In this document: one piece after another, positions 1 to 29,616 of the stretch
Position numbering within the stretch: the first letter of the stretch is position 1
How the letters are laid out: each line of letters starts with the position of its first letter
Source: an uncultured Actinomycetes bacterium
GTDB lineage: Bacteria; Actinomycetota; Thermoleophilia; UBA2241
Reading direction: 5' to 3'
DNA length: 64,000 nt
Assembly (NCBI GenBank): GCA_963833555.1
Contig: CAWHYB010000004.1
Span: forward strand, 131,844 to 195,843
Notes under the pieces: model-generated
Databases searched by the model: none
What the model was told of the DNA's origin: nothing
Seen by the model: the letters and a program-made list of their open reading frames with translations, nothing else
Position numbers and translations under genes: made by a program

Positions 1-313
1 CGTCCTTCATGACCTGGGGGATCTGATCGCTGCGCACCACGACACGGTTCATGGCGCCGTACAGTTCAGCGATGCGGCGCCCGTTGCGGTCGTAGATGAC
101 GGTGTTCTGGCCAAGGTGGGTCTTGGTCATGTCGTCGAGCTTCGGCAGCGTGCGCGAGACCGCGACGATGGTGCCGGTAAGCCCGGCCACCAGCGACACG
201 ACAGCCACGGCGAGGACGATCAGGGCCAGGCGCCACCAGTGAAGGCGGGGCCTGCGGGCCGCACGCCGCCGACGGGCGCGGGAAAGGGGGCGAGTCTGAG
301 TGTCGTTGCTCAT
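1..313 (-). CDS. Penicillin-binding protein 1A-family (GT51 transglycosylase) N-terminal part; the gene runs off the left edge
   Basis: My own reverse translation from ATG (complement of 311-313) gives MSNDTQTRPLSRARRRRAARRPRLHWWRLALIVLAVAVVSLVAGLTGTIVAVSRTLPKLDDMTKTHLGQNTVIYDRNGRRIAELYGAMNRVVVRSDQIPQVMKD. This is a basic tail, one TM helix, then the IYDRNG..IAEL start typical of class A PBPs. It is absent from the ORF track because the window edge truncates it. Confidence 0.6.
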   Translation of the reverse strand, partial: MSNDTQTRPLSRARRRRAARRPRLHWWRLALIVLAVAVVSLVAGLTGTIVAVSRTLPKLDDMTKTHLGQNTVIYDRNGRRIAELYGAMNRVVVRSDQIPQVMKD

Positions 314-325
314 TGGGCGACCTCT

Positions 326-331
326 ATTGTA
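326..331 (-). promoter_or_regulatory. Candidate -10 box TACAAT, 12 nt upstream of the PBP start codon (near-leaderless mRNA)
   Basis: The minus strand reads gccgcTACAATagaggtcgcccaATG. The same hexamer recurs upstream of other genes in the window (16892, 29387, 32617). Confidence 0.3.
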
Positions 332-347
332 GCGGCTCCCGGGCCGG

Positions 348-388
348 GGCGGTGGGGCGCCGCCCGGGACGGGCGGCGCCCCACCGCC
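348..388 (-). terminator. GC-rich perfect 18-bp stem-loop immediately after the tatC stop
   Basis: GGCGGTGGGGCGCCGCCC (348-365), loop gggac, GGGCGGCGCCCCACCGCC (371-388); the arms are exact reverse complements. No U-tract follows, which is common in high-GC genomes. Confidence 0.45.
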
Positions 389-1186
389 TACTCGGCCGTG
401 GCCGGAGCGTTCGTCGACGGCGGAATCACCTTGTCGGACGGCCCTCGGGTGGCGGCGTTCCATGACGCGCGCCACCAGCAGCGCGAGTTCGTAGAGGATC
501 TCGAGCGGGATGAACATGGCGATGAACGAGAAGGCGTCCTGGCTCGGCGTGGCCACCATCGCGATCGATGGCGTTGATGACGATGGCGTAGCGCCAGTGG
601 TGGCGCAGGGTCTTCGTGCTCGACGATGCCCATGCGGGTCGCCGCGATGATCGCGACAGGCACCTCGAAGACGGCCCCGAAGGCGACCAGGAACCAGGCC
701 ACGAACGAGAAGTAGTCCGATGCCCGCGCCTGTGCGTTGAAGTACTGGCTGTTGAAGCCGAACAGCCACTGGAGGCCTTTGGGCAGACACGAGGAGGTAG
801 CCGAAGCACGACGCCGCCCGAGGAAGAGGAGCGCGCAGATCGTCACGACGAGCAAGACGGCGCGCCTGCTCGATGGAGCGAACGCAGGGCCGATGAAGGC
901 CCAGAACTGGTAGATGAGGATCGGGCGACGCCACGATGAGGCCGACGTACACCCAGACCTTGAGGCTCACCATGAACGGTTCGGCGGGGCTGAAGGTGAT
1001 GATGCGATGCGGCACGCCGGACCCGCTCAAGTGGTGGAGCGGGCGCAGCAGCGCGGCGAACACATAGTGGTTGAGGATGGCGGCGGCGATCACGCCGACG
1101 GCAAGCGCCGCGGCGGCCGTGATGAGGCGCCGCCGGAGCTCGCCGAGATGCTCGACGAGGGTCAGCCGTTCTTCGAACGCGACCAT
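388..1186 (-). pseudogene. tatC: Sec-independent translocase TatC, frameshifted as assembled
   Basis: Reverse translation from ATG (complement of 1184-1186) gives MVAFEERLTLVEHLGELRRRLI.... Later fragments (ORFs 388..855 and 426..809) read FNAQARASDYFSFVAWFLVAFGAVFEVPVAIIAATRMGIV and LRHHWRYAIVINAI. These typical TatC segments are spread over three frames. Confidence 0.8.
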
Positions 1187-1429
1187 GCCGCCGTCAGCCG
1201 GCCGTCGGCCCAGCCGTCGCGTCGCCGGGAGGCGCCGGGGTGCCGTCCGGCGGCGGGGCTGTGACCTTGCGGGGGCTCAACCTGCCGAAGGTCTCGACGG
1301 CTGTGTCGTCGGGCGCGGGGACGTCCGACGAGGGCGCCGTCGGAGGGCCTGACGGAGCCGCGGCGGCGGGGCCGGCGGCTGTCGCCGCCGGCTCGGCCGC
1401 CGCGGCTGTGTCGCCGCTCGCGGTCAGGC

Positions 1430-1627
1430 TCATGTCGGCTTGAGGCCGTTGACCGCGTCGGCAAGCTCGTCGAGGCCGACCTCGCGGCGGATGTCGGAGG
1501 TCGCCGCCCGGAATTCGCGGATTGCCTTGCCGACCTGGCGACCCATCTCGGGCAGCCGTTTGGGCCCGAACACGACGAGTGCGATGATGATCACCATGAT
1601 GATCTCAGGTAGGCCGATGTTGGGCAT
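1430..1627 (-). CDS. tatA: Twin-arginine translocase TatA/TatB-family protein
   Basis: MPNIGLPEIIMVIIIALVVFGPKRLPEMGRQVGKAIREFR is the canonical TatA N-terminal TM helix plus amphipathic helix (FGPK+LPE). An ATGA overlap leads into the Ala/Pro-rich ORF 1194..1433, which may be its C-terminal tail separated by an indel. Confidence 0.85.
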   Translation of the reverse strand: MPNIGLPEIIMVIIIALVVFGPKRLPEMGRQVGKAIREFRAATSDIRREVGLDELADAVNGLKPT

Positions 1628-1860
1628 CGCGATGAGGCTCCTGGGTGGTGGAAGTACTGGGTGAGGTCTTCATCAAGGGTAAGGACGAGGCCTGCGTGCG
1701 TCAACTGCACGGGCTGGCGGTCCGACCAACTACCTTCGACATGGTGAGAACCGGCTGTCTAATCTGGCCACACAGGGCTGGACATGTCGGCGGTCCCGGT
1801 AGTGAAATGCCTGCAAACCGTGCGTACATCAGCGATGGCCTGCTCGAGGCGCCGCCCGGC

Positions 1861-1890
1861 TTGCACGCTCCGAAGCGGCTTTGCTATAGT
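1861..1890 (+). promoter_or_regulatory. Candidate sigma70-type promoter of the nuo operon
   Basis: TTGCAC (1861-1866), 18-nt spacer, TATAGT (1885-1890). It lies about 60 nt upstream of the nuoA ATG (1950), which is preceded by GGAG. Confidence 0.4.
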
Positions 1891-1949
1891 CGGCCTCGTG
1901 ATCGGCCCGCAGGCGTGCCTGCTGTGCACCATCTCTACCGCCACGGAGT

Positions 1950-2319
1950 ATGACGACCGCATTCCTGACCAACTGGATCTACGTCGCCGTGTTCGTCGCG
2001 GCCGGCGCCGCGATGGTCGTGGGCATCCTGCTCATGTCGCGGCTCGTCTACCCGATCCACCCGTCGCGCGAGAAGTACTCGACCTACGAGTGCGGCATCG
2101 AGCCGGTGGGCGACTCGTGGCATCCGTTCGCGGTGCGCTACTACATCTTCGCGCTGCTGTTCCTGGTCTTCGATGTCGAGGCCGTCTTCCTGTTCCCCTG
2201 GGCGATCACGTTCCGCACGCTCGGCACCGCCGGGTTCGTCGAGGTGCTCGTGTTCATCGGCGTGCTCGGCGTCGGGCCTCGTCTACGCCTGGCGCAAGGG
2301 GGTCCTCGAGTGGGTCTGA
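1950..2319 (+). pseudogene. nuoA: NADH-quinone oxidoreductase subunit A, one +1 frameshift near 2275
   Basis: MTTAFLTNWIYVAVFV...REKYSTYECGIEPVGDSWHPFAVRYYIFALLFLVFDVEAVFLFPW matches NuoA/ND3. The conserved end LVYAWRKGVLEWV* (stop 2317-2319) is in the next frame. Confidence 0.9.
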
Positions 2320-2874
2320 ACGACGGGTTCGATCTGCAAGGCCTGGTCGGCAGGGTCCACGTACCCCAACATCAACCAGTTCGAGCAGCCCAACGTCGTC
2401 ACTACGACGGTCGACCTCGTCTTCAGCTGGGCGCGGTCGCACTCGGTGTTCCCGTTCACCTACGGTCTCGCCTGCTGCGCCATCGAGATGCTCAGCTCCG
2501 GCTTCGCGCGCTTCGACGTCGCCCGCTACGGCATGGAGGTCTTCCGGCCCACGCCGCGCCAGTCCGACCTCATGATCGTGGCCGGCACCGTCAACGAGAA
2601 GATGGCGCCGGTGCTCAAGCGCCTCTACGAGCAGATGTCCGAGCCCAAGTGGGTCATCGCCATGGGCGCCTGCGCCACCAGCGGCGGTCCGTTCTACGAC
2701 GGCTACAACGTGGTCAACGGCGTCGACAAGATCGTGCCGGTCGACGTCTACATCCCCGGCTGCCCGCCGCGCCCCGAAGCGCTCTTCCAGGGGCTGCTCG
2801 AGCTGCAGAAGAAGATCCAGGCGATGCGCATCGTACCGCCGGTGCCGGCCGGCGTCCGCGCCGAGGAGGACTGA
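2310..2874 (+). pseudogene. nuoB: NADH-quinone oxidoreductase subunit B, +1 frameshift near 2357
   Basis: GTG 2310 overlaps the nuoA stop. The protein reads [14 protein letters not shown]...[21 protein letters not shown]...[14 protein letters not shown], which contains the N2-cluster Cys motifs. Confidence 0.92.
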
Positions 2875-2875
2875 G

Positions 2876-3375
2876 GTGCTCCCGGCCATCGGGTCTGCCG
2901 GCCTGTCGATCGACGAGGTCGCGCGCGCGTCTGGCCACCGAGTTCGACGGCGAGCTCACCGACGTGCGCGTCCAAGAGGACCGACACCGTCGTGGCCGGC
3001 GTCGACCGCGGCGGCTTGCACGACCTGGCGCGGCGCCTGCGCGAGCTCGACGGCGCCGCTTACGAGTCGTGCAACTTCGTCGCCGCGGTCGACCATCGCA
3101 CGCGCTTCGAGACCGTCTACCACCTCTACTCGTTCGCCACGCAACACCTATCTCGAGCTGCACGTCGACGTGCCGCGCGGCCAAGCCCGTCGTCGACACC
3201 GTCACCGACGTGTGGCCCGCGGCCGAACTGGCACGAGCGCGAGGCCTGGGACATGATGGGCATCCGCTTCGAGGGTCATCCCGACCTGCGCCGCATCCTG
3301 CTCAAGGACGACTGGGTCGGTCACCCGCTGCGCAAGGACTACGTCGACCTCGTCGAGAACCACCCGCATGTCTGA
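2876..3375 (+). pseudogene. nuoC: NADH-quinone oxidoreductase subunit C, five +1 frameshifts
   Basis: The fragments [62 protein letters not shown] and [24 protein letters not shown] rotate through frames 2-0-1-2-0-1. Confidence 0.88.
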
Positions 3376-4589
3376 TCAGTTCGCGACACAGCGCCCCCGA
3401 CGAGGCCATGGCGCTCGCGCTGCGCCGCATCGCCGAATCCGAGGCGGCCGGTCACGGCAGCGACATGGAGGGCCTGGGCTTCAACCAGGTCGTCGTCAAC
3501 ATGGGCCCGCAGCACCCGTCGACCCACGGTGTGCTGCGCCTGGTCGTGACCCTCGACGGCGAGCTCGTCAAGGACGTCATCCCGGTGATCGGCTACCTGC
3601 ACCGCAGCAAGGAGAAGCTCGCCGAGAAGCGCACCTACTTCCAGTACATCCCGATCGTCGACCGCACCGAGTACCTCGCCGGCATGAACTGCGAGTGGGG
3701 CTACGTCATGACGGTCGAGAAGCTGGCCGGCATCGGGCCGACGCGCCGGGCCGAGTTCATCCGCGTCATCATGGCCGAGCTCAACCGCATCGCCAGCCAC
3801 CAGGTCGGCGTCGGCACCTTCGCCGCCGACCTCTCGCCGCTGGGCACGGCGATGGTCTTCTACGCGTTCCGCGACCGCGAGGAGATCCTCGACCTGTTCG
3901 AATCGGCCAGCGGCGCGCGCATGATGTTCAACTACTTCCGCTTCGGCGGGGTGCGCTACGACCTGCCCGACGGCTGGGTCGAGACGCTGTCGCGAGGCTC
4001 ATGCTCAAAGTCGCCCAAGCTGGTGCGACGAGTACGAAGCGCTCGTGAGCGACAACGCCGTGTTCCTGCAGCGCTGCATCGGCAAGGGCGTCATGACACC
4101 CGAGGACGTCGCCGACTACGCGATCACCGGGCCCAACGCGCGCGCCTCCGGGGTCGCCCACGACCTGCGCCGCACGCGGCCCTACTCGGTCTATCCCGAG
4201 CTCGACTTCGAGATCTGCCTGCGCGACGCACGGCGACGTCTACGACCGCTACCAGGTGCGCGTCGACGAGATGCGCGAGTCGGCGAAGATCGTGCTGCAG
4301 TGCCTCGACATGCTGCCCGACGGCCCGGTGCAGGTCGGCACGTCTGCGCCCGCCGTACGTGATCACGCCGCCGCCGGGCGCCTGCTACACGGGCCAGGAG
4401 AACCCGCGCGGCGAGTACGGCACCTACATCGTGAGCGACGGCTCGCGCTACCCGTACCGGCTCAAGTACCGCGACCCCTGCTTCGTGAACCTGCAGATCT
4501 TCCCCAAGCTGCTGCGCGGCAACAAGATCGCCGACGCGGTGGCCATCTCGGGCAGCATGGACCTCGTCCTCGGAGGCATCGACCGATGA
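3368..4589 (+). pseudogene. nuoD: NADH-quinone oxidoreductase subunit D, four +1 frameshifts
   Basis: VVVNMGPQHPSTHGVLRLVVTLDGE...[101 protein letters not shown]. Confidence 0.92.
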
Positions 4590-5713
4590 GCTGGGATCTC
4601 GTCTGGGCCATCGTGCGCGTCGTCGTCGCGATCGTCATCGCCTACGCGGTCGTGTTCGTCGCGGCGCTCGTGAACATCCTCTTCGAGCGCCGCATGCTGG
4701 CCTTCCTGCAGGACCGGCTCGGTCCCAACCGCACCGGCCCGCAGGGCATCCTGCAGAGCGTCGCCGACTCCTTCAAGATGATGGGCAAGGAAGACTTCGC
4801 GCCGGCGCGCGGCCGACAAGGCGATCTTCACGCTGGCGCCGATCATGGTCATGGTCGGCGCCGTCGCGGTGCAGCTCGTGATCCCCTACACCAAGGGCTG
4901 GACGGGCCAGGACCTCAACGTCGGCCTCATCTACATCGTCGCCATCACGAGCTTCACGGTGCTGGCGATCCTGCTCGGCGGCTGGGCCTCGCACAACAAG
5001 TACTCTCTGGTCGGCGCGCTGCGCTCGGCGGCCCAGATGGTCTCGTACGAGCTGCCCATGATCCTCGCGCTGCTCGTGGTGGCGATGACCGCCGGCTCGC
5101 TCAGCCTCAACGCACGTCGTCGCGGCGCAGTCGCACTACCAGTGGTTCGCCTTCACCATGCCGTTCACGTTCCTGCTCTTCTACATCGCCTCGATCGCCG
5201 AGCTGAACCGCGGCCCCTTCGACCTGCCCGAGTCCGAGTCCGAGCTCGTCGCCGGCTACGGCACCGAGTACTCCGGGCATGCGCTTCGGCATGTTCTTCC
5301 TCAACGAGTACGCCGGCATGACGATCATGTCGATGGTCACCGTCACGCTGTTCTTCGGCGGCTGGCAGGGTCCCTTCGCGGACGCCGTCGTCGATCCACG
5401 GCGTCGCCCTCGTGCCCATCGTCTGGTTCCTGGTCAAGACCTACGTGCTGGTCTTCGCGCTGGTGTGGATCCGCCTGTCGGTGCCGCGCCTGCAGGTCGA
5501 CCAGCTCATGGGCTTCGCCTGGAAGATCCTCATCCCGCTCGGGCTGGTCAACATCCTGGCGACCGCGGCCGTGCATGCTCTGGGCGCCGCACTGGAAGCT
5601 CGCCATGGCCGTCTTCAGCTGGATCTGCGCTGGTGCTGTTCGTCGGCCTGTTCGACACGGTGCTGCGCTGGCGGCTCGAGCGGCAGCGCGAGAGCGTGGC
5701 GGTGCTCGCCTGA
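4586..5713 (+). pseudogene. nuoH: NADH-quinone oxidoreductase subunit H, six +1 frameshifts
   Basis: ATGA overlap with nuo[109 protein letters not shown]. Confidence 0.92.
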
Positions 5714-5945
5714 TGCTCGGCATGCTCAAAGCCATGCGCACCACGCTCGCGCACCTGCCGCAGAGGAAGATCACCGTGCAGTACCCCGAGCAGCGCGAAG
5801 CAGCTGCCCGAGCGCAGCCGCGGCCTGTTCCGCGTCGTCATCGACCCGGCCACCGACGACCCGCGCTGCCGCTCGTGCACGCTGTGCGAGACCAACTGCC
5901 CGGTGCAGGTCATCCGCGTCAACTACGAGCTCCAAGTACGACGCT
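5713..5945 (+). pseudogene. nuoI: N-terminal half only of NADH-quinone oxidoreductase subunit I (TYKY), carrying the first 4Fe-4S motif; possibly fused to the downstream NuoE-like region
   Basis: TGATG overlap with nuoH. The protein reads [29 protein letters not shown], then after a +1 shift near 5790, [42 protein letters not shown]. No second CxxCxxCxxxCP motif follows in any frame before NuoE homology starts near 6000. Confidence 0.75.
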
Positions 5946-6481
5946 GCCGGCCGTCAACGAGGCGCGCATCGCAGCGCGCCCGCGTCGACGTCGCAGCCGA
6001 CGCCCGACCTGGCCCTGCTCGCGCCGGTCATCGACCACTACCGCGAGACCGGCACCGGCATGATGGCCGTGCTGCAGCACACGCAGGAGATCTACGGCTA
6101 TCTGCCGCGCCTGGCGCTTGCAGGAGATCGCCGTGCAGACCGGCATCTCGCTGTCGCAGCTCTACGGCGTGGCGAGCTTCTACAACCAGTTCCGCCTCGT
6201 CGCCGGTCGGGCAAGCTTCATCGTCACCGTCTGCCACGGCACCGCCTGCCACGTCGCCGGCGCGCCGCTGATCACCGACGCGTTCTCCGAGGAGCTCGGC
6301 ATCGAGGTCGGCAAGACCACCAAGGACCGCCTGTTCACGCTGCAGACCGTCAGCTGCGTCGGCGCCTGCGCGCTGGCGCCGGTGGTGCGCGTCGGCGACG
6401 ACGAGACGCACGGCCGCATGACGCCCGACAAGGCGCGCGAGCTCGTCAACGATCTCCGCGCCGGGCGAGGGCGACCGATGA
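5946..6481 (+). pseudogene. nuoE: NuoE/HoxE/HydC-type [2Fe-2S] subunit (24 kDa family); 5' boundary unclear, frameshifted
   Basis: [38 protein letters not shown] / QEIAVQTGISLSQLYGVASFYNQFRL...VCHGTACHVAG...TVSCVGACALAPVV (Cx4C...Cx3C). No ATG, GTG or TTG occurs in its frame between about 5945 and 6060. The 3' end is either an ATGA overlap at 6478-6481 or runs in frame into nuoF. Confidence 0.8.
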
Positions 6482-8390
6482 GCGTCGTCACCGACGACGG
6501 ACGCGCCATGTGCAGGCGGCCCTCGAGGCGCCTGCGTGGCCGACGCGTCGTCGCCCACGAAGGCGCCCGTCGAGGTGCGCATCTGCGCCGGCACCGCCTG
6601 CCACGCCTCGGGCCGTCCGGCCGTCACCGCGGCCTTCCGCGAAGAGCTCGCCGAGCAGGGCCTGACCGAGACGGTGCGCGTCGTCGAGACCGGCTGCCAC
6701 GGCTTCTGCGAGCAGGGTCCGATCGTCGTCGTGCAGCCCGAAGGGTTGTTCTACCCGCGCGTCCGTGCCGGACGACGTCGCCGACATCATCGAGGCGAGC
6801 ATCGTCGACGACGGCGATCGACGAGAAGCTCCTCTACAAGGACCCGGAGACCGGCGAGCCCATCGCCCACGAGACGGACATCCCCTTCTACAGCGGGCAG
6901 CGCCGCCTCGTGCTGGCGCTGAACGGCAAGGTCGACCCCTACTCGATCGACGACTATCTCGCCCACGGCGGCTACACGGCGCTGGCCAAGGTGCTGGCCG
7001 ACGACGACCCCGAGGACGTCATCGAGGCCGTCACCGAGTCGGGCCTGCGCGGCCGCGGCGGCGCCGGCTTCCCGACCGGCACCAAGTGGCGTCTCACGCC
7101 GCGCAGAGCCCCGGCGAGCTCAAGTACGTCATCTGCAACGCCGACGAGGGCGACCCCGGCGCGTTCATGGACCGCTCGGTGCTCGAGGGCAACCCGCACG
7201 TCGTGATCGAGGGCATGATGATCGCCGCCTTCGCGATCGGCGCCACCGAGGGCTACGTCTACGTGCGCGCCGAGTACCCGTTCGCCGTCGAGCGCCTCGC
7301 GCGCGGCGCTCGAGCAGGCGCGCGAGCGCGGCATCCTCGGCGACGACGTGCTCGGCACCGACTTCGCCTTCGACGTCCACATCAACGAGGGCGCGGGCGC
7401 GTTCGTCTGCGGCGAGGAGACGGCGCTGATGGCCAGCATCGAGGGCCGTCGCGGCATGCCGCGCACGCGCCCGCCGTACCCGGCCGTCGAGGGCCTGTTC
7501 GGCAAGCCGACCAACATCAACAACGTCGAGACCTACGCCAACGTGCCCTGGATCATCAACCACGGCGCCGCCGAGTTCGCCGCCATGGGCATGGGCCGTT
7601 CGCGCGGCACCAAGATCTTCTCGCTCACCGGCAAGGTCGCCAAACGGCGGCCTGGTCGAGGTGCCGATGGGCGCCACGCTGCGGCACGTCATCTTCGACA
7701 TCGGCGGCGGCATGCTGCCCGGCCGCGAGTTCAAGGCCGTGCAGCTCGGCGGCCCGTCCGGCGGCTGCCTGCCGGCCGACATGCTCGACACGCCGATCGA
7801 CTACGAGCGGCTGACCGCGACCGGCGCGATCGTCGGCTCCGGCGGCCTGGTCGTCGTCGACGACACGACCTGCATGGTCGACCTCGCGCGCTTCTTCCTG
7901 CAGTTCACGCAGGACGAGAGCTGCGGCAAGTGCGTGCCCTGCCGTCTCGGCACCAAGCGCATGCTCGAGATGCTCGAGCGCATCATCGCCGGCGAGGGCC
8001 GCGAGGGCGACATCGAGCTGCTCGAGGAGCTCTCGCAGCTACATCATCGACGGCACGCTCTGCGCGCTCGGCGGCACGGCCCCCAACCCCGTGCTCACCA
8101 CGCTCCGGTACTTCCGCGACGAGTACGAGGCGCACATCAACGACAAGTGCTGCCCGGCCGGCCGCTGCAAGGCGCTCATCACCTACTACATCGACGACAA
8201 CTGCACCGGCTGCACGCTGTGCGCCAAGAAGTGCCCGACGCAGCGCATCACCGGCGAGAAGAAGCAGCCGCACGTCATCGACGACGGCGCCTGCATCAAG
8301 TGCGACACCTGCCGCCAGGTCTGCAACTTCGACGCCGTCAAGGTCCGCTCCGGCATCGAGCAGCGCTCCGCGCCGGCAGAGGAAGCGTGA
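6478..8390 (+). pseudogene. nuoF: NuoF/HoxF/HydB-type FMN-NADH subunit with an N-terminal thioredoxin-like 2Fe-2S domain and a C-terminal 2x[4Fe-4S] ferredoxin domain; multiple frameshifts
   Basis: N-terminal VEVRICAGTACHASG...[16 protein letters not shown]. Core [84 protein letters not shown]-terminal [19 protein letters not shown]...[19 protein letters not shown]. Stop at 8388-8390. Confidence 0.88.
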
Positions 8391-8395
8391 CGGAC

Positions 8396-10903
8396 ATGGC
8401 GACGATCGAAGACAGGATCGACAGGCACCCCCGCAGCGTGAAGCCGCCGCCCGCGGGACGGGCGCGCGCTCCGCAGATCACCCTGACGATCGACGACCAG
8501 CAGGTGATCTGCGACGCGGGCGAGACGATCCTCGAGGCGGCCCAGCGCGTCGGCATCCACATCCCGACGCTGTGCTACGAGCCGCGCCTGCCGGCCTCGC
8601 CGCCTGCCGCGTCTGCATGGTCGAGGTCGAGGGCGCGCGCAAGATGGTGCCGAGCTGCGCCACGCCGCGGCCGACGGCATGGTCGTGCACACCGACACCG
8701 AGCAAGGTGCGCGAGATGCGCCACCTCTACCTCGAGCTGCTGCTCTCCGACCACAACTCGTTCTGCACGCCGCCCTGCCGCGACGCCTGCCCGACGCACA
8801 TCAAGATCCCGCAGTTCCTCGACTACATCGCCCACGGCGACTACAAGAACGGCGTGCGCAAGCTGCGCGAGGACCTGCCGTTCCCGGCCATCCTCGGCCG
8901 CGTCTGCCCGCGGCCCTGCGAGGGCCCGTGCCGCCGCCAGCTGGTCGAGCACCCCATCACCATCTGCTGGCTGCACCGCTTCATGGCCGACCAGTGCACT
9001 CGACGAGGAGCAGACCGGCGAGCTGCTGCTGCCGGTCGAACCCAAGCCCGACACCGGCAAGCGCATCGCCATCGTCGGCGCCGGTCCGGCCGGCCTGGCC
9101 TGCGCCTTCTACGCCCGGCTCGAAGGGCACGCGGTCAAGATCTTCGAGGCCCTGCCGCACGCCGGCGGCATGCTGCGCTACGGCATCCCCAGCTACCGCC
9201 TGCCGCGCGACCTCATCGACAAGGAGATCAACGTGCTCTGGCGCATGGGCGTCGAGCTCCAGTGCGACACGCGCCTCGGCGTCGACTTCCAGCTCGAGGA
9301 CCTCACAGCGCAACTACGACGCCGTGTTCCTCGCTCTCGGCGCCTTCGGTTCCAACGAGATGGGCGTCGACAACGAGGACGCCGACGGCGTCGTCTCGGC
9401 CGTCGACTTCCTCGGCGAGCTCGAGCTCAACGGCGACGTGCACGTCGGCGACAAGGTCACCGTCATCGGCGGCGGCTTCACCGCCATGGACGCCTGCCGC
9501 ACCTCGGTGCGCAACGGCGCCAAAGAGGTCACCTGCCTCTACCGCCGCTCGCGCAAGGAGATGCCGGCCCACCTCACCGAGGTCGACGAGGCCGAGGAAG
9601 AGGGCGTGAAGCTCGAGCTGCTCGTCGCCCCGGTGCGCATCCTCGTCGACGACGACCACAAGGTCACCGGCATCGAGATGCAGCGCATGGAGCTCGGCGA
9701 GCCCGACGCCTCCGGCCGTCGCCGGCCGGTGCCGATCGAGGGCTCCGAGTTCGTCGTCGAGTGCGACCAGGTGATCGCCGCCATCGGCCAGTTCCCGATG
9801 CTCGACGGCACGAGCGAGGAGCAGGGCGTCAAGCGCACGAAGTGGAAGACGATCGACGTCGACGAGTTCACCTTCCAGACCGACGATCCGCGCGTGTTCG
9901 CCGGCGGCGACGTGGTGCTCGGCGCGCAGACCGTGATCCAGGCGGTCGCCCAGGGCAAGAAGGCGGCCTGGAGCATCGACGCCTTCTTGCGCGGCGACGA
10001 CATGCGCGAGGTCTCGCGCGAGCTCGCCGAGCTCCGCGCGACGCCGTTCTTCAAGGCGCCTGAACGCAGAGAGCGATCTCGACCCGGCGATCGCGCGCAT
10101 GGCCGAGATCCCGCCGATGTTCATCGACATGACGACCGACGTCATCGCAGCCCGCGGCCGCCGGCCGAGATGCCCAAGCTCTCGCCCGAGCAGCGCAGCA
10201 CCAACTTCGAGCAGATCGAGCAGGGCTTCTCCGAAGCCGAGGCGCAGCGCGGCGCCGAGCTCTGCCTCGACTGCTACTGCCCGGCGAACGGCAGCTGCGA
10301 CCTGCAGCGCTACGGCATCGAGTACGAGGTCTTCAAGAACCGGTTCCACGGCCAGGCGGCGCACGACTACCCGGCCGACTTCCGCCACGACTTCATCATG
10401 CGCGAGCCCAACCGCTGCATCAACTGCCTGCGCTGCGTGCGCGTCTGTCGCATGGAGGTCGGCGCGAGCTGCTACGACGCCATGGGCCGCGGCTGGGACA
10501 CGATCGTCTCGACGCCCGACAACCTGCCGCTGCAGATGGTCGGCTGCGTCTCGTGCGGCAAGTGCGCCGAGACCTGCCCGACCGGCTCGATCGAGACCAA
10601 TCCGCGCCTGCTCGCCAGCTACGACCTCGACGAGAGCCGCTGCATCTTCTGCGGCGAGTGCGTCGAGGTCTGCCCCTACGACGCGCTCGAGCAGACCGAC
10701 TTCTTCGAGCTCGCCGACTACAGCCGCACGCAGCTGGCCGGCGAGTCGCTGTTCGTGCGCGGGCCGAAGCCCGTCGACGCCCTGCGCGAGACCGTCCCCG
10801 ACCTCGTGCCGCACGTGCGCGACGCGGTCGCGGGCGACGGCTGGCAGTGGTCGCCGCTCAAGGGCGACGGGGCCGGCCTCGACGAGATCGAGGAGGAGTG
10901 TGA
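8396..10903 (+). pseudogene. Fusion protein: NuoG-type 2Fe-2S domain + GltD/NfnB-type FAD/NAD(P)H oxidoreductase + NuoG/HydA-type 4Fe-4S clusters + C-terminal half of NuoI; several frameshifts
   Basis: [187 protein letters not shown]...GCVSCGKCAETCPTGSIE; SYDLDESRCIFCGECVEVCPYDALEQTDFFELADYSRTQL. It ends at a TGATG overlap with nuoJ. Confidence 0.8.
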
Positions 10904-11415
10904 TGCCGCACGGCGACTTCCACCCCGTGCCTTCATCGTCGTCGTCGCTCTGGGTGCTCGTCTGCGGCGTCGGCGTCGTGGCCTTCCGCAACATCGTGCA
11001 CTCGGCGGTGTCGATGGTCTTCTGCTTCCTCGGCGTCGCGGCGGTCTACGTGCTGCTCAACGCGGGGCTGCTGGCCGTCATCCAGATCCTGCTCTACGTC
11101 GGCGCGATCTCTGTGGTCGTCCTCTTCGCCATCATGCTGACCGACCAGCGCCTCGCCGGCCGTGGCTTCTTCTTCAACCGCCAGAGCATCTTCGCGCTGC
11201 CGCTCGCGGTCGCGGTCGCGGTGTTGCTCACCGTCGTTCTCGTGACCTCGAGCATGAGCCCCAACGGATCGGTCTCGCACAACGTCTCGTTGCCCGCCAT
11301 CGCCAGCGGGCTGTTCAACAGGTACGTCTTCCCGTTCGAGCTCGTCTCGTTCGTGCTGCTGGCGGCGATGATCGGCGCCATCGTGCTGGCCCGCAAGAGA
11401 GGACGCGTGCCGTGA
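10903..11415 (+). CDS. nuoJ: NADH-quinone oxidoreductase subunit J
   Basis: The ATG is preceded by GGAGGAG. FRNIVHSAVSMVFCFLGVAAVYVLLNAGLLAVIQILLYVGAISVVVLFAIMLT...FPFELVSFVLLAAMIGAIVLARK. It appears to be in a single frame. Confidence 0.88.
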   Translation: MPHGDFHPVPSSSSSLWVLVCGVGVVAFRNIVHSAVSMVFCFLGVAAVYVLLNAGLLAVIQILLYVGAISVVVLFAIMLTDQRLAGRGFFFNRQSIFALPLAVAVAVLLTVVLVTSSMSPNGSVSHNVSLPAIASGLFNRYVFPFELVSFVLLAAMIGAIVLARKRGRVP

Positions 11416-11722
11416 GCGCCATCGACTGGTATCTGACGCTCGCCACGGGGCTCTTCTCCATCGGCGCCTACGGCGTGCTCGCGCGGCGCAACGTGATCCT
11501 CGATCGTCATGAGCCTCGAGCTCATGCTGAACGCGGTCAACATCGCCCTGGTCGCCTTCTCCAACTTCATGCCGGCGGCCGCGGGGCGGGGCACGTTCTT
11601 CGTGCTCTTCGTCATCACGCTCGCCGCGGCCGAGGTGACGGTCGGTCTCGCCATCGTCATCGCCAACTACCGCAACCGCCGCACGCGTGCAGGCCGACGA
11701 GTTCAACGAGCTCAAGGGGTAG
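11412..11722 (+). pseudogene. nuoK: NADH-quinone oxidoreductase subunit K, frameshifted
   Basis: [29 protein letters not shown] / [18 protein letters not shown]...[30 protein letters not shown] / ..ADEFNELKG* (stop 11720-11722). Confidence 0.88.
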
Positions 11723-15243: not shown

Positions 15244-16776
15244 ATGAACAACTCGCTCCACGTCATCCTGCCGGCGGTCGATCGTCGTCGCCGACGGCCG
15301 TGGTCGTGCTGCTCGTCGACGCGCTTCTGTCGAGCGCGCAAGCGCGCCCTCGCCTGGATCGCTGCCGGCGGCCTCGTGGCCGTCGCCGTGGTCGCCCTCG
15401 CGCAGTGGACCAGCTGGACGGGCGGCGCGGCGCTCTGGCGCGTGTTCTCCGGCGGGCTTGTCTGGAACACGCGCCAGGCCGAGTACGGCTTCAACGGCAT
15501 GGTCGAGCTCGACCAGTACGGCCTGTTCTTCACGGTCCTGTTCTGCGCCATCGGCGTGCTGACGATCATGCTGTCGGACGGCTACCTGTCGCGTCACGGC
15601 GTCAAGCCCGGCGAGTTCTACGCGCTGCTGCTGCTCGTCATCGCCGGCATGATCGGCATGGCGATCTCGACCGACCTGATCGCGCTGCTCGTCTCGTTCG
15701 AGCTCATGTCGCTGCCCACGCTACGTGCTCGCCGGCTTCCTGCGCCGCGACCGGCGCGTCCGGCGAGGCCGCGATCAAGTACTTCATCAACGGCGCCTTC
15801 GCCTCGGCGATGCTGGCCTTCGGCCTGGCGCTGGTCTACGGCGCCACGGGAGCGACCGGGCTACGACCGGCATCCACCGCCGGCCTGGCGCTGCACCGAC
15901 GCGCGAGCGGCGTCCTGATCGTGGCTCTGGTGCTGGTCGTCGACCGGGTTCGGCTTCAAGATCGCCGCCGTGCCGTTCCACGGCTGGGCGCCCGACGTCT
16001 ACGAGGGCGCCCCGACACCCGTCACGGCCTTCATGTCGGTCGGCATCAAGGCCGGGGCCTTCGCGGGCCTGCTGCGCCTCGTGGCGTTCGCGCTGATCCC
16101 GGCCGGCACGACCTGGTCCGACGTGCACTCATCGTCCTCGCGGTGCTCACGATGGTCGTCGGCAACGTGCTCGCCCTGCCGCAGCGCAACCTCAAGCGCA
16201 TGCTCGCCTACTCGAGCATCGCCCACGCCGGCTACCTGCTGCTCGGCCTCATCGCCATCGGCCGCAGCCACGGATCGGCCGGCGCCAGCGCGGTGCTGTT
16301 CTACCTCGCCGCCTACACCTTCATGAACCTCGGCGCGTTCGGCATCCTCGTGCTGCATCCGCAACCGGCGGCGCGTTCGCCTACACGCTCGACGAGCTGG
16401 CCGGGCTCGGGCGGACCATGCCGCTGACCGCGCTCGCCATGACGCTGTTCATGCTGTCGCTCACCGGCATCCCGCCGCTCGCCGGCTTCTGGGGCAAGTT
16501 CTACCTCTTCACGGCGATCGTCGACGCCCACCTCACCTGGCTGGCCGTCGTCGCCGTGCTCATGAGCGCGGTGTCGGCCTTCTACTACCTGCGGGTCGTG
16601 TGGTACCTCTTCTTCCGCGAGGCCGAGGGCGAGGCGCCCGAGCTGCAGGCGGTCGGGCGCCGGCGTCTCGGCCTCGCTGGCGGTGGCCGTGCTCGGCGTG
16701 CTCGCGGTCGGGCGTCTACCCGGCGCCGATCATCGCGGCGGCGCAGGGCGCCGTGCGACTGCTGGTCGGGTCCTAG
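15244..16776 (+). pseudogene. nuoN: NADH-quinone oxidoreductase subunit N, frameshifted
   Basis: MNNSLHVILPAV..; [107 protein letters not shown]; stop 16774-16776. Confidence 0.9.
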
Positions 16777-16949: not shown

Positions 16950-17731
16950 ATGAGGATCCTCTTCCTGGGCGACGTGTTCGGCCAGCCGGGTCGCGACGCC
17001 GTCGTGCGGGACGCTGCCCGGACTCGTCGACGAGCACGCCGTCGAGCTTCGTGATCGCCAACGGCGAGAACGCCGCGAACGGCGCCGGCATCACCTCGAA
17101 GATCGCCCAGAAGCTGCTCGACGCCGGCGTCGACGTGATCACGACCGGCAATCATGTGTGGCGCCAGCGCGAGGTCTATCCCTTCCTGACGTCGAGCGAC
17201 CGTATCGTGCGACCCGCCAACTTCCCGCGCGTCGAGCCCGGGGCGAGGACTGACCGTGCGCGCCACCGAGGCGGCGAGCAGGTCGCTGTGATCAACCTCA
17301 TGGGGCAGGTCTTCATGGACTCCGGCATCTCGCCGTTTCGCATCGTCGACGCGCTCGTCGACGAGGCCATGACCCTGGCCGAGACGATCGTCGTCGACAT
17401 CCACGCCGAGGCGACCAGCGAGAAGGTGGCCATGGCCCAGTACCTGGACGGTCGCGTCGACGGCCGTCATCGGGCACACACACCCACGTCCAGACCGCCG
17501 ACGAGCGGGTGAGTGCGAAGGGCACGGCGGCCATCACCGACGTCGGCATGTGCGGACCTACGAGCATCGGTGATCGGCGTGCGCAGCGAGATCATCCTGC
17601 GGCGGTTCCTTACCGAGTTGCCGGTGCAGTTCGAGGTCGCCGACGGCGACGTGCGCATCGACGGCGTCCTGGTCGACCAGCGGTGGCCGGTCGGGCGACC
17701 GCGATCGAGACGGATCGAGCTGCGCTGTTGA
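16950..17731 (+). pseudogene. ymdB: YmdB-family metallophosphoesterase (2',3'-cyclic-nucleotide phosphodiesterase-like), frameshifted
   Basis: MRILFLGDVFGQPGRDAV...; IANGENAANGAGITSKIAQKLLDAGVDVITTGNHVWRQREV; VAVINLMGQVFM; VVDIHAEATSEKVAMAQYLDGRV; ITDVGMCGP; VIGVRSEIILRRFLTELPVQFEVA. Confidence 0.8.
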
Positions 17732-20429: not shown

Positions 20430-22193
20430 CGTTGACTGCGCCGCCTGAGCGTCCGGTCCTCGCCGGTCCAGCGCCTCGGCGTCGCGCCGGAACATCTCCA
20501 CTGTCTTGCTCGCGAGCGTCGCCCTGAACGCCAGCTTCGCGGCGGACAGGGGATTGGGTCCGGCGAAGCGGGGCGTCAGCCGATACGCAAGCCGGGACGG
20601 AAGGGCGACGCGTAGCGCCTTCATCGCGGAGACCACCAGACTGGCCACCGTGACGGGACTCTGGGAAGGCGAGGCCGCCGCGGTCAGCAGGCTGACCGCG
20701 GCGGCCTCGCCCATCACGCTCTCGATCGACGGCGAGGCAAGCGTCGCCACGACCTCCCGGACGATCTCCTGTTCGGCGAGGTAGGCCGCCGGCGCGGGCG
20801 TCGAGACGAACCGTGCGTGCGGGATGGGCCGCGTCTCGGGATCGACGATCGCCATCATCGCGCGACCGTACATGCGAAGCTCGTCCGGGAGGGACCGGAC
20901 CACACGGAAGAGGTCCCTCGCGAGCAGCGGGTTCGCGACCTCCAGGTAGCGGCACTTGATCTCGGTGAGGGGCGCGAGGCTGTTCGGGATGTAGCCCTGA
21001 TGATACATGCGGTCACGATACGCCTCGAGCCCTTCTCCGGGCCGCGGCCGCAGCCACTCCGGTACGTCTTGGTCGGCGAGGCCGAGCCGTCGTATGAGGT
21101 GCCCTTCGGGATAGTCCCGGACCATGACGGACGATCCCTGCCGGCGGGCGGCGTCCAGGGATACCGCCCGCCGCCTGCCCCCGAGGGGCTCGTCGCCCCG
21201 GATGACCCCGCTCACGCCCGCGTCGAAGAGGCCCGCCCACATGGCGCAGCCGTCGACGTAGGCGGCGAACTCGTCCGTCCTCCCCTCGCCGACCTCGACG
21301 AAGCGTTGCAGCGAGCCGGGGGCGACGGCTTGGCGGGAGTCGAGGAAGAGGTAGTCGTGGCGCGCATGGAACCGGCGGGCAAGCAGGCGGGCAACAACGG
21401 CGTCGGAGAGCGGATTCTTGGTCGACGCCCGGGTCGTCCAGGTGACGCATCGTGGCGAGCGGCCGTTCCTGACCATGAACACCAGGATCGTACGGCTGTC
21501 GAGACCGCCCGAGAGCGGCAGGAGCCAGCGCGAGGTGTCTATGTCGAGGTCCCCGCAGCTTCGCGCGACCGCGTCGCGCAGCAGTCCGAGATGCTCGTCG
21601 CGACTTCGGCGGACCGGCTCGAAGACGGCGGGTCGTTGGTCGAGGGTCGGCCTCCATGCTCGCCGGTCGAACGACAAGCAGGCGTCCGGCGGTACCCGGC
21701 GGATCCGGGAGTCCCACGAGCGATCGGGGCCGAGCGTGCCCGCCGAGAGCAACCACGCGACGGCGCTGCGGTCGAGATCGAAGCTGCCGAGGAGAGCCAC
21801 AACGGCTCGTTGTGACGTCGAGGCGATCAGCCGCTCCTCGTCCCAGGCATACCACAGTGTCCTGGAAGAGGGCACGTCCGACAGCAGTTCGACGCGATCG
21901 CTGGAGTACCTGACGAGAGCGTAGGCGCCGTCGGGGGGCTCCGCCCCGGTGATCCACCAACGCCCGGCATCCCCGAGCAGGCCGCCCAGCAGCACGCCGC
22001 CGTCGGCTTCGCGAATGCCGTCACCGGAGGGATTCACGATGGTGACGCAGAGGCCCTGAGCCTCGAGGATGCGGGGCGGGCGGGCTACGATGTTGCTCGG
22101 CGAGATGCGCCTCGCGACCATCGCCATCCGCTGCCGGGCGTCGTCGCGCGGTGCCCGCCCCGCCCGCCCGCACTCCAGAATGAGATCCGCCAC
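20409..22193 (-). CDS. Asparagine-synthetase-family (PP-loop ATP pyrophosphatase) protein lacking the N-terminal catalytic Cys
   Basis: Intact 594-aa ORF. The GTG start is preceded by GGAGG. The N-terminus is M-A-D-L-I-L-E rather than M-C-G-I. The PP-loop is WLLPLSGGLDSRTILV. It is a paralog of 24539..26254. Confidence 0.75.
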   Translation of the reverse strand: MADLILECGRAGRAPRDDARQRMAMVARRISPSNIVARPPRILEAQGLCVTIVNPSGDGIREADGGVLLGGLLGDAGRWWITGAEPPDGAYALVRYSSDRVELLSDVPSSRTLWYAWDEERLIASTSQRAVVALLGSFDLDRSAVAWLLSAGTLGPDRSWDSRIRRVPPDACLSFDRRAWRPTLDQRPAVFEPVRRSRDEHLGLLRDAVARSCGDLDIDTSRWLLPLSGGLDSRTILVFMVRNGRSPRCVTWTTRASTKNPLSDAVVARLLARRFHARHDYLFLDSRQAVAPGSLQRFVEVGEGRTDEFAAYVDGCAMWAGLFDAGVSGVIRGDEPLGGRRRAVSLDAARRQGSSVMVRDYPEGHLIRRLGLADQDVPEWLRPRPGEGLEAYRDRMYHQGYIPNSLAPLTEIKCRYLEVANPLLARDLFRVVRSLPDELRMYGRAMMAIVDPETRPIPHARFVSTPAPAAYLAEQEIVREVVATLASPSIESVMGEAAAVSLLTAAASPSQSPVTVASLVVSAMKALRVALPSRLAYRLTPRFAGPNPLSAAKLAFRATLASKTVEMFRRDAEALDRRGPDAQAAQSTSDRQLP

Positions 22194-26328: not shown

Positions 26329-26727
26329 TCAGCCATCGTCGGTCGCCCTCGTCGGCCCTCGGCGGGGGTAGAAGGACGCGAGCAGCACCGGCGCCGCCAG
26401 TGCGAACGGCAGGACGAGCCACGCGAGATCGTGGTGGTGCCGCTCGACGGCCAGCCGGTAGACGATCGCCATGGCCGACAGCGCCGTGAACAGGATCAGC
26501 ACCTCAACCACGAGCCGCTGCCCCCAGGGGTCCCGGGCTGCGCGCAGGGCGCCGATCCCCATCGCGAACAACGCCGCGGCGAGGATCTTGCCCGAGGTCG
26601 TCGCCGCCAGGTCACCCGAACGTCCCAGGTCGAGTAGCAGCGCCAGCGCGATCGCCACGCTGCCGAGGAAGTAGACGACGAGCAGCACCCTGATGACCCC
26701 GAACCGGTCGGCGGTACCGATCGTCAT
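26329..26727 (-). CDS. Small integral membrane protein of unknown function (about 4 TM helices)
   Basis: 132 aa: VIRVLLVVYFLGSVAIALALLL..ILAAALFAMGIGAL..VVEVLILFTALSAMAIVY..WLVLPFALAAPVLLASF. Its 4-nt overlap with the upstream SGNH gene suggests translational coupling. Confidence 0.55.
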   Translation of the reverse strand: MTIGTADRFGVIRVLLVVYFLGSVAIALALLLDLGRSGDLAATTSGKILAAALFAMGIGALRAARDPWGQRLVVEVLILFTALSAMAIVYRLAVERHHHDLAWLVLPFALAAPVLLASFYPRRGPTRATDDG

Positions 26728-29257: not shown

Positions 29258-29386
29258 CAGTCAGCGGCCTCCTGCCGGTTCGTTCTCCAGAACATGCCTA
29301 TCGGGCCGTTCGTCAGCAGAAGTGCCGGTTCCTCCCTGAAGGTCGCAGCTTCTGCGACACCGATGCCTCCCAACGATTGGACTGTG

Positions 29387-29392
29387 ATTGTA
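29387..29392 (-). promoter_or_regulatory. Candidate -10 box TACAAT upstream of the MBOAT operon
   Basis: The minus strand reads gcgccTACAATcacag, about 125 nt upstream of the ATG at 29257, in a lower-GC intergenic region. Confidence 0.25.
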
Positions 29393-29569
29393 GGCGCGTC
29401 GCGCGAACCGCCGCCAGCCTAGTCCTTAGTCAGTTCGGGCAACGACCCGTGGATAGGCACGGCGGGCGGCGGAGGGTGGATTCGGTCACGAGCCCATTCA
29501 CTCTGCCGTGACGCATCATTCCGCATCAGGCGCTACAGAAGCGACTGCACGGCCTACACGGAGGGACCG

Positions 29570-29597
29570 GGGCGGTCAGGCCAGCTCCTGACCGCCC
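29570..29597 (-). terminator. Stem-loop after the 29617..30759 gene
   Basis: GGGCGGTCAGG, loop ccagct, CCTGACCGCCC; an 11-bp perfect stem 20 nt downstream of the stop on the minus strand. Confidence 0.45.
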
Positions 29598-29616
29598 TGT
29601 CCCACGCTGCCGGCCA

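Follow-up and report, generated by a model that had tools for sequence, protein, structure and literature searches.

What does a single gene that joins a NuoG-type iron–sulphur domain, a GltD-type flavoprotein and half of NuoI encode in the middle of a complex I operon, and is it an intact gene at all? We addressed this question for a gene at positions 8396-10903 (hereafter the GltD fusion gene) of a 64-kb stretch of DNA (the window; G+C 63-72%) from contig CAWHYB010000004.1 of an uncultured thermoleophilian actinobacterium of the UBA2241 lineage. We are confident that this gene specifies one subunit of a rebuilt respiratory complex I in which a three-gene cassette (E-F-A: a NuoE-like BfuC, a NuoF-like BfuB and a GltD-bearing BfuA) lies inside nuoI, with both NuoI junctions in frame. 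As for activity, the gene content leads us to favour, with moderate confidence, a proton-pumping NADH/NADPH (possibly also ferredoxin):menaquinone oxidoreductase.

The integrity of the gene is at issue in a window where single-base insertions or deletions (indels) interrupt nearly every gene about once every 250-350 nt, giving 184 frame segments in 64 kb, a pattern that looks like an unpolished long-read assembly and not biology. Genes were followed across frames by combining an open reading frame (ORF) listing, three-frame reading, a frame tracker aware of stops and of G+C content at third codon positions, and stitched translations. For the GltD fusion gene the path was taken from the ungapped per-frame high-scoring segment pairs of its best homologue (P0001; 831 aa); gapped tblastn crossed wrong frames. 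This path runs in frame 2 from 8396 to 8599, frame 1 to 8664, frame 0 from 8664 to 8705, frame 1 to 8994, frame 2 from 8999 to 9313, frame 0 from 9315 to about 10057, frame 1 from 10060 to 10143 and frame 0 from 10152 to 10898. Nucleotide alignment to the closest intact orthologue (locus L081, the contig of P0001; 88.6% nt identity) placed eight single-base indels at 8598, 8663, 8703, 8999, 9314, 10059, 10143 and 10156, besides two in-frame differences, and one extra single-base indel is required shortly before the stop. These are essentially the sites that the original prediction had marked for correction (near 8590, 8665, 8995, 9305, 10060-10170 and 10890). Both ends of the gene match those of intact orthologues: it starts with the ATG at 8396 and ends with the TGA at 10901-10903, where it overlaps the start of nuoJ.

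About nine frameshifts in 2.5 kb could also signify a fusion created by misassembly or real frameshifts in a decaying gene, but this explanation is scarcely credible. All of the indels are single-base, their density is similar in the other nuo genes (core nuoD, nuoH and nuoL included) and across the window, there is no in-frame stop within any matched segment, and the matched segments, the two shortest apart, show 82-92% protein identity. Since the neighbours are similarly broken and no segment has a stop, the breaks look like assembly or read errors rather than decay. The same ORF and synteny moreover recur in independent contigs from JGI, ENA, NCBI and Logan. The stitched product has 840 aa, and at least 120 intact clusters of 807-880 aa (73-88% identity) carry it as a single ORF, as do the clean genome locus L001 (824 aa; on a 1.8 Mb contig) and L081 (831 aa); in these orthologues stop codons do not, then, divide it into separate conventional genes. 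Where named, the sources are metagenome-assembled genomes (MAGs) of Thermoleophilia or Actinobacteria. Public annotations of the intact orthologues read only ‘FAD-dependent oxidoreductase’ or ‘formate dehydrogenase major subunit’, so that the Thermoleophilia arrangement is easily missed.

Within the gene, the order is a [2Fe-2S] domain, a GltD/NfnB-type flavin adenine dinucleotide (FAD)/NADPH module with Fe-S clusters, a two-cluster ferredoxin-like domain and a NuoI C-half. Residue numbers below are those of an intact orthologue.

8396-10903, + strand: whole gene, an NfnA/StnC-type subunit with a NuoI C-half replacing the formate dehydrogenase (Fdh)-like domain; about nine single-base indels
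8474-8700, + strand: NuoG/HydA-type [2Fe-2S] domain (Pfam Fer2_4, residues 25-100; ligands C58, C69, C72 and C86)
8749-10085, + strand: GltD/NfnB-type insert (Pfam Fer4_20, residues 122-202, and Pyr_redox_2, residues 221-517; StnC/NfnA alignments)
10263-10298, + strand: CxxCxCx5C motif (CLDCYCPANGSCDLQ; C619, C622, C624 and C630), after the insert
10392-10589, + strand: ferredoxin-like 2x[4Fe-4S] domain (C670/673/676/680 and C713/716/719/723; Pfam Fer4_Nqo3, residues 662-727, and Fer4 dicluster, residues 713-760)
10599-10903, + strand: NuoI C-half (second CxxCxxCxxxCP motif from 10641; NuoI signature FELADYSRTQL; conserved tail of about 50 aa)

All of the motifs listed in the original prediction are present, in the order and at the coordinates given there. 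The insert starts within the motif of a His-ligated cluster (H118, C122) and supplies ligands for two [4Fe-4S] clusters (C126, C130, C169, C173, C177 and C189/H192). It also carries the FAD motif GxGxxG, the NADPH motif GGGxxAxD and a YRR motif (2'-phosphate), all invariant or nearly so on alignment, so the GltD core is not one that has lost its FAD- and NADPH-binding residues. With two [4Fe-4S] sites and FAD, NADPH and YRR motifs, the product has the features of a GltD/NfnB-type NADPH flavoprotein and is predicted to be one; its PDB matches include NfnL (5jca_L, E 4.5e-88) and GltD (2vdc_G, E 4e-69). The CxxCxCx5C motif completes the clusters at the insert boundary, is aligned with the same motif in StnC and NfnA, and is invariant in 120/120 family members and kept in about 143/145 diverse relatives. 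What had been read as a second GltD-like leader merging into this region is no duplicate: it is the only GltD N-terminal leader, and collinear alignments put it behind the Rossmann domains, as in StnC/NfnA. Every predicted Fe-S ligand, the four NuoI cysteines included, is unchanged in 120/120 family members.

The whole of this arrangement up to the NuoI tail is that of the Stn and Nfn enzymes. A resemblance to StnC had been put forward in the original prediction, and it holds: the best Protein Data Bank (PDB) matches are NfnA of Caldicellulosiruptor saccharolyticus (Csac; 9bov_A, E 9e-185), StnC (8oh5_C, E 5e-161) and an archaeal NfnA (9n5u_A), all collinear with residues ~25-750. From the sequence order we infer that the ferredoxin-like dicluster corresponds to the A2 and A4 clusters of NfnA. 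The protein is not a NuoG: the match to the NuoG model TIGR01973 is confined to the first ~100 residues and scores 115.8 bits, where the cut-off is 470, the N5 motif is broken by the GltD insert and there is no pterin-like domain (Pfam).

NuoI is a core subunit of the deeply conserved complex I and is normally one small protein. Here, the ~80 residues of the GltD fusion protein that lie beyond the StnC/NfnA alignment match the C-half of NuoI in the PDB (8qby_I, 93-135 of 163; 2fug_9, 88-172 of 182), and the cysteines C745/748/751/755 are invariant (120/120). The N-half is encoded on the other side of the cassette.

5713-6481, + strand: NuoI N-half fused to a NuoE/BfuC-type thioredoxin-like [2Fe-2S] protein (I_N::E); first CxxCxxCxxxCP motif at 5867-5902

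The ATG of this second fusion overlaps the nuoH stop, its NuoI part begins TVQYPEQR, and there is no stop in any frame between the NuoI N-half and the NuoE-like part. The N-terminus matches the N-half of NuoI/TYKY (5lc5_I 30-99 and 2fug_9 7-81; E ~1e-10), the intact orthologue in L001 has 253 aa (Pfam 2Fe-2S_thioredx, 104-244), and the fusion was found as one continuous match in most long Thermoleophilia loci. The NCBIfam NuoI profile TIGR01971 divides cleanly between the two proteins: residues 8-74 of I_N::E match profile positions 2-66 (54.6 bits) and residues 731-777 of the GltD fusion protein match positions 69-115 (56.6 bits). No polypeptide holds both motifs, each half scoring about half of the cut-off (113.05 bits); joined in silico, the halves reach 112.1 bits over positions 2-117. 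In alignment with five intact NuoI from canonical operons the joined halves cover NuoI end to end with 8/8 cysteines, and the break lies within the variable loop that separates the two ferredoxin half-domains. The split gene thus lies between nuoH and nuoJ with all eight cluster cysteines, and no intact nuoI was found in the operon. The identification of the tail as a true NuoI C-half, made in the original prediction from the letters alone, is borne out by structures, alignment and profile alike.

A generic polyferredoxin tail was another candidate. The top PDB matches are the multi-repeat polyferredoxins FwdF and MvhB, since the motif fits many of their repeats; we rejected this reading because segments specific to NuoI, profile positions that complement each other and the place in the operon all indicate NuoI. 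We also observed that the ~50-residue tail after the NuoI half (~10810-10898) has invariant or nearly invariant positions (L792, E794, DLVPHV 798-803, G809, G811, W812, W814 and P816); this tail may correspond to the C-terminal extensions of actinobacterial NuoI.

The occurrence of soluble E-F-A operons in other phyla (L023, L024 and L027-L029) allows for a different history, in which the cassette is merely co-encoded with complex I, its products forming a soluble transhydrogenase of the Nfn/Stn type, and the disruption of a gene has left the NuoI halves as dead remnants. We regard this as highly unlikely. In a family with 73-88% overall identity, none of the eight NuoI cysteines varies and neither do the flanking motifs specific to NuoI, a complex I from an operon without another nuoI would have no N6a and N6b clusters, and the Fdh-like domain that mediates tetramerization of Stn (PMC10482914) is missing.

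The remaining genes of the operon, all on the + strand, are as follows; nuoA to nuoH are all frameshifted by single-base indels, and coordinates from nuoJ to nuoN, from stitched translations, are approximate owing to frameshifts.

1963-2277, + strand: nuoA
2361-2872, + strand: nuoB
~2873-3372, + strand: nuoC
3373-4584, + strand: nuoD
4585-5713, + strand: nuoH
6478-8390, + strand: NuoF-like subunit of the bifurcating BfuB type (stitched read; Pfam on the 636-aa L001 orthologue)
10903-~11415, + strand: nuoJ
~11412-11719, + strand: nuoK
11723-~13640, + strand: nuoL
13642-~15245, + strand: nuoM
~15250-16690, + strand: nuoN

This gives 13 genes in the order nuoA-B-C-D-H-[I_N::E]-F-[GltD::I_C]-J-K-L-M-N, an order that L001 and L081 share, with genes overlapping or almost abutting. 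The segment from nuoA to nuoH, comprising the Q-module and first membrane subunits, is arranged in the same way in L001 (Pfam Oxidored_q4/q6, Complex1_30kDa/49kDa and NADHdh), and that from nuoJ to nuoN, the proton-pumping membrane arm, in L001 and L081 (Pfam Oxidored_q3/q2 and Proton_antipo_M), with synteny in ~25 loci. In the stitched read the N2 ligand motifs (CC...GACA...GCPP) of NuoB are retained; in L001, NuoD carries the motifs QHPSTHG and IGYLHR of the quinone-site type, with the quinone-site His/Tyr, and is without NiFe cysteines. With NuoA, B, C, D, H and J-N present, a quinone-site NuoD and an N2-bearing NuoB, the operon is predicted to encode a quinone-reducing complex I. Among solved structures NuoD (3373-4584; L001 4969-6180) is closest to NdhH of the cyanobacterial 11-subunit NDH-1 (6hum_H, E 9e-105); Thermus Nqo4 follows, and mycobacterial NuoD (8e9g_D, E 2e-87) ranks far behind, which fits an 11-subunit-type ancestry of the membrane and Q modules.

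The NuoF-like subunit comprises an N-terminal thioredoxin-like [2Fe-2S] domain, a flavin mononucleotide (FMN)/NADH domain, an N3-type [4Fe-4S] cluster and a C-terminal region with a Zn site and 2x[4Fe-4S]. It aligns end to end with HydB (7t2r_B and 7q4v_B), NfnB (9bov_B) and StnB (8oh5_B), with E values of 1e-231 to 1e-237, and its extra Cys/His motifs are aligned with theirs. The N-terminal [2Fe-2S] and C-terminal Zn/2x[4Fe-4S] domains are absent from non-bifurcating NuoF, Fdh and Hox homologues (PMC9304861, PMC11829005). The NuoE-type domain of the partner protein has its Cys motifs too. The NuoF-like and NuoE-like proteins together accordingly have the make-up of a BfuBC core, for which bifurcating activity is at most predicted. 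Directly 3' of nuoN lies a gene for a YmdB-like metallophosphoesterase (16951-17700), a synteny that is kept in most Thermoleophilia loci.

How widespread is this arrangement, and how might it have arisen? In a scan of one genome per GTDB species the full-length architecture occurred only in MAGs of Thermoleophilia/Actinomycetota. Searches by tblastn with the L001 operon proteins recovered A-B-C-D-H-[I_N::E]-F-[A::I_C]-J-K-L-M-N-ymdB in every sufficiently long locus; ~25 Thermoleophilia species keep this order, at identities as low as 60%. Elsewhere, in Clostridia, Verrucomicrobia, Bryobacteraceae and Anaerolineales, the three E-F-A genes occur by themselves and no nuo genes accompany them; identity to these soluble cassettes is ~41-54% (A, ~41%; E and F, ~43-54%). 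An exhaustive search of 1.84 billion representatives clustered at 50% identity returned one full-length cluster with a NuoI tail (P0121, 69% identity); the remaining representatives have ~40-47% identity, are mostly 1000-1270 aa long and have matches that end at ~730-760. Representatives of ~810-850 aa were considered as NuoI-tailed proteins from elsewhere and rejected, as they end in NN(I/V)DHCARL with one odd exception; they look like selenocysteine-truncated formate dehydrogenases.

Without the cassette, the operon has the order of an 11-subunit nuoABCDHIJKLMN, and the gene order within the cassette, E-F-A, is that of soluble Nfn/Stn operons. The simplest history would be that an Nfn/Stn-type E-F-A cassette was inserted in frame into nuoI, within the part that encodes the loop. 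Over residues 19-742 the nearest relative is a Thermoleophilia paralogue (L013/L018) with 66% identity. The L013 gene (9677-14230) has Molybdop_Fe4S4, molybdopterin and dinucleotide-binding domains and an in-frame TGA at HCART-U-HAPTV; the selenocysteine-site TGA and the molybdopterin domains mark it as a GltD-bearing enzyme of the formate-dehydrogenase type, likely a selenocysteine-containing and perhaps NADPH-linked formate dehydrogenase. Within ±10 kb of it, neither E/F neighbours nor nuo genes were detected.

What, then, would the rebuilt complex do? Coupling of NADPH (or NADH plus NADPH, possibly ferredoxin) to quinone reduction was put forward in the original prediction, and we still infer this as the natural reading because the gene lies in a complex I operon with NuoD and NuoB of the quinone-reducing type. 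Menaquinone is the presumed quinone, as in other Actinobacteria. In the proposed mechanism the two NuoI halves would reassemble into a 2x[4Fe-4S] ferredoxin fold (N6a and N6b) at the interface of both fusion proteins, each polypeptide giving three ligands to one cluster and one to the other, and this reassembled NuoI would anchor the soluble module to NuoB, NuoD and NuoH. NADPH would reduce the FAD of the GltD domain and NADH the FMN of the NuoF-like subunit, and both Fe-S chains would converge at the ferredoxin-like domain of the GltD fusion protein. From that node electrons would pass through A2-A4 to N6a/N6b, N2 and menaquinone, driving proton pumping, and the retained Bfu-type extra clusters suggest that ferredoxin may exchange electrons with the module too.

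The productive path in Csac NfnA is FAD-A7-A6-A3-A2-A1-[B1-FMN-C1], and A2-A4-A5 forms a dead-end branch into the inactive Fdh-like domain; in true formate dehydrogenases these three clusters are functional (PMC11829005). The closest paralogue, L013, of the selenocysteine formate-dehydrogenase type, still has that domain, which favours such a wire. In StnC, clusters C1 and C2 have been called a non-functional remnant (PMC10482914). In the sequence of the GltD fusion protein the NuoI motif stands where NfnA has its A5 (Molybdop_Fe4S4) motif, 21 residues past the A4 motif, and we propose an A2-A4 to N6a/N6b wire because the NuoI motif takes the A5 position.

Several observations weigh against a proton-pumping NADH/NADPH:menaquinone oxidoreductase of this design. 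StnC K170, the Lys ligand of the FAD-proximal cluster, is reported to be strictly conserved and functionally important (PMC10482914), and Lys occupies this position in 141/145 diverse relatives, whereas His is found in 120/120 family members. In the corresponding motif, ITICWLHRF (~8965-8976; C189 and H192), an invariant Cys precedes the invariant His by three residues. With a Lys essential in StnC replaced by His, the FAD-proximal cluster may behave differently. The structural model is of limited help: AlphaFold2 on P0001 with a 52-sequence family alignment gave a mean predicted local distance difference test (pLDDT) score of 66, with ~80-97 over most of residues ~190-545 and <50 for residues 622-800, that is, for the ferredoxin-like domain and NuoI half. 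The model is unusable for cluster geometry there and, because of these low scores, speaks neither for nor against the A4-N6a geometry or the reassembly of the NuoI fold. The canonical exit to N6a is furthermore the His-ligated N5, at which a 450-residue GltD insert sits here; with an insert in the N5 loop the docking of the N-module is probably different, or the insert is accommodated. Lastly, Bfu-type modules are known from anaerobes and normally need ferredoxin for turnover (PMC9304861), and a simple dual-donor model leaves the retention of all bifurcation-type clusters unexplained.

That retention is what recommends an obligate confurcation of the kind proposed for ‘Nuo-Bfu’, a predicted, uncharacterized 14-subunit complex I with bifurcating-type NuoEFG in Geobacter, Deferribacteres, Planctomycetes and Nitrospirae (Schut et al. 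2022, PMC9304861). Such an enzyme would work only if ferredoxin is oxidized alongside NADH and/or NADPH, and the pooled low-potential electrons (~-400 mV) would suffice to drive full proton pumping by a menaquinone-dependent complex I. None of the Bfu hallmarks is missing from the NuoF-like subunit (N-terminal [2Fe-2S], Zn site and C-terminal 2x[4Fe-4S]), and Schut et al. put forward the same rationale for a menaquinone-linked Nuo-Bfu (PMC9304861). However, Nuo-Bfu has itself not been characterized, a high-potential quinone exit wired to the A-chain lets NADPH and NADH each reach quinone downhill without ferredoxin, and no ferredoxin-generating genes were seen in the 64-kb window. We consider an obligate confurcation unlikely.

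The conservation of FMN, FAD, Bfu core and Q site in one assembly is also what would be seen in a quinone- or proton-motive-force-linked bifurcating transhydrogenase or ferredoxin reductase that makes NADPH or reduced ferredoxin in an aerobe. By a logic like that of FixABCX/EtfABCX, built on complex I, one electron passing from NADH to menaquinone would drive the other to NADP+ or ferredoxin, or flow would be reversed from menaquinol. Soluble Stn and Nfn are reversible transhydrogenases (PMC10482914), and EtfABCX is a reported case of bifurcation from NADH to menaquinone plus ferredoxin (PMC10734219). The proposal is nevertheless a purely thermodynamic one, and the FAD of StnC is non-bifurcating (PMC10482914); we find it very doubtful.

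A broader speculation, which we hold to be improbable, is a four-substrate hub that couples bifurcation directly to a proton-pumping quinone reductase in soil actinobacteria. According to conditions, the downhill NADH-to-menaquinone step or the proton motive force would drive reduction of NADP+ or ferredoxin, or else NADH, NADPH and ferredoxin would be confurcated into menaquinone. The complex would then be a bifurcating transhydrogenase integrated into the respiratory chain, in which N6a/N6b clusters common to two polypeptides keep the assembly together.

The NADH/NADPH:menaquinone oxidoreductase that we favour would, if correct, give a proton-pumping quinone reductase a point of entry for NADPH and perhaps one for ferredoxin, and would turn an Fe-S branch seen as a dead-end remnant in StnC/NfnA into the main exit wire. 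It would also show how a menaquinone-dependent complex I gains driving force.

Beyond the operon, the window holds other features that we record as observations. A large envelope/polysaccharide gene region extends from 17805 to 58300, some of its assignments coming from stitched translations alone. It includes an undecaprenyl-phosphate sugar transferase (Bac_transf), NAD-dependent epimerase-like and UDP-GlcNAc 2-epimerase-like proteins, several GT4 glycosyltransferases and an ABC-2 exporter pair (39611-41643). The minus strand of the region carries a pair of asparagine-synthase-like paralogues (20462-22178 and 24542-26115) and an MBOAT acyltransferase (26361-29260). Within this region, G+C falls to 63-65% at ~28000-38000, against 68-72% elsewhere in the window, and the frame tracker called few genes at 29.3-31.3, 31.7-33.0 and 34.7-37.7 kb; the DNA here may have been acquired or may be poorly coding. 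From 58640 to 64000, radical S-adenosylmethionine (radical-SAM)/SPASM proteins and a PqqD-like domain lie beside a GT4 glycosyltransferase and may form a peptide-maturation locus like those for ribosomally synthesized and post-translationally modified peptides (RiPP-like). Rfam and tRNA scans of the window found no RNA genes.

Among known systems, StnABC/NfnABC (‘Nfn-Bfu’; Sporomusa ovata 8OH5, Caldicellulosiruptor saccharolyticus 9BOV and archaeal 9N5U) come closest, with the same three-subunit E-F-A gene order and an StnC/NfnA subunit that is collinear with the GltD fusion protein over ~725 residues ([2Fe-2S] domain, GltD insert in the His-cluster motif, CxxCxCx5C motif and ferredoxin-like dicluster). 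StnC and Csac NfnA run on for ~470 residues as an inactive FdhF-like domain with the last cluster and the tetramer interface, whereas the GltD fusion protein continues for ~80 residues and, unlike its paralogue L013, has no Molybdop_Fe4S4 or Molybdopterin match (Pfam). The Thermoleophilia system differs further in that the E-like protein carries the NuoI N-half, the genes lie within a nuo operon and the A7/C7 Lys ligand is replaced by His. The L013/L018 paralogues share with the GltD fusion family the His/Cys feature ITIC(W/Q)LHRF.

Nuo-Bfu is alike in that a Bfu-type E/F/A module feeds the membrane and Q modules of complex I, with a presumed menaquinone acceptor and genes inside a nuo cluster. 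As described, it has a NuoG-like BfuA without an FAD/NADPH domain, a separate intact NuoI and the order A-B-C-D-E-F-G-H-I, and no Actinobacteria are listed; the Thermoleophilia operon in contrast has 13 genes, a split NuoI and an NADPH arm and is without the pterin-like domain of NuoG. It thus offers a widespread and concrete candidate for the unproven idea of a membrane-bound, proton-pumping Bfu enzyme. In Mbx-like operons NuoI is replaced by a GltD-related flavoprotein (Degli Esposti 2015, PMC4758237), and ‘Mbh-Bfu’ of Dehalococcoides is predicted and uncharacterized (Schut et al. 2022, PMC9304861). Compared by description only, these resemble the Thermoleophilia operon in that a complex-I-like membrane module goes together with a flavin site of the GltD type or an additional one, or in that a BfuABC cassette is sandwiched in a membrane-complex gene cluster, but they are of the hydrogenase or sulfur-reductase type and no NuoI-like split or StnC-type fusion has been described for them. 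Nor did the searchable open-access literature describe a split NuoI, a GltD-bearing N-module of complex I or peculiarities of Thermoleophilia complex I; within that literature, the splitting of a core complex I subunit and its fusion to two N-module subunits is the feature for which we found no precedent.

Set beside canonical NuoI/Nqo9/TYKY (NDUFS8), the joined halves span the whole protein, with both CxxCxxCxxxCP motifs, the N- and C-terminal signatures and the nuoH-nuoJ position, but they lie on two polypeptides encoded ~4.7 kb apart, each fused to an N-module subunit. Halves of NuoI each joined to a subunit of a bifurcating Nfn/Stn transhydrogenase make a clear case of natural modular rewiring. 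The 11-subunit complex I/NDH-1 operons, with which the Thermoleophilia operon shares its gene order outside the cassette, differ in being without an NADH/NADPH module and in having an intact NuoI/NdhI; viewed against them, the Thermoleophilia operon provides a snapshot of the grafting of an N-module onto an 11-subunit ancestor.

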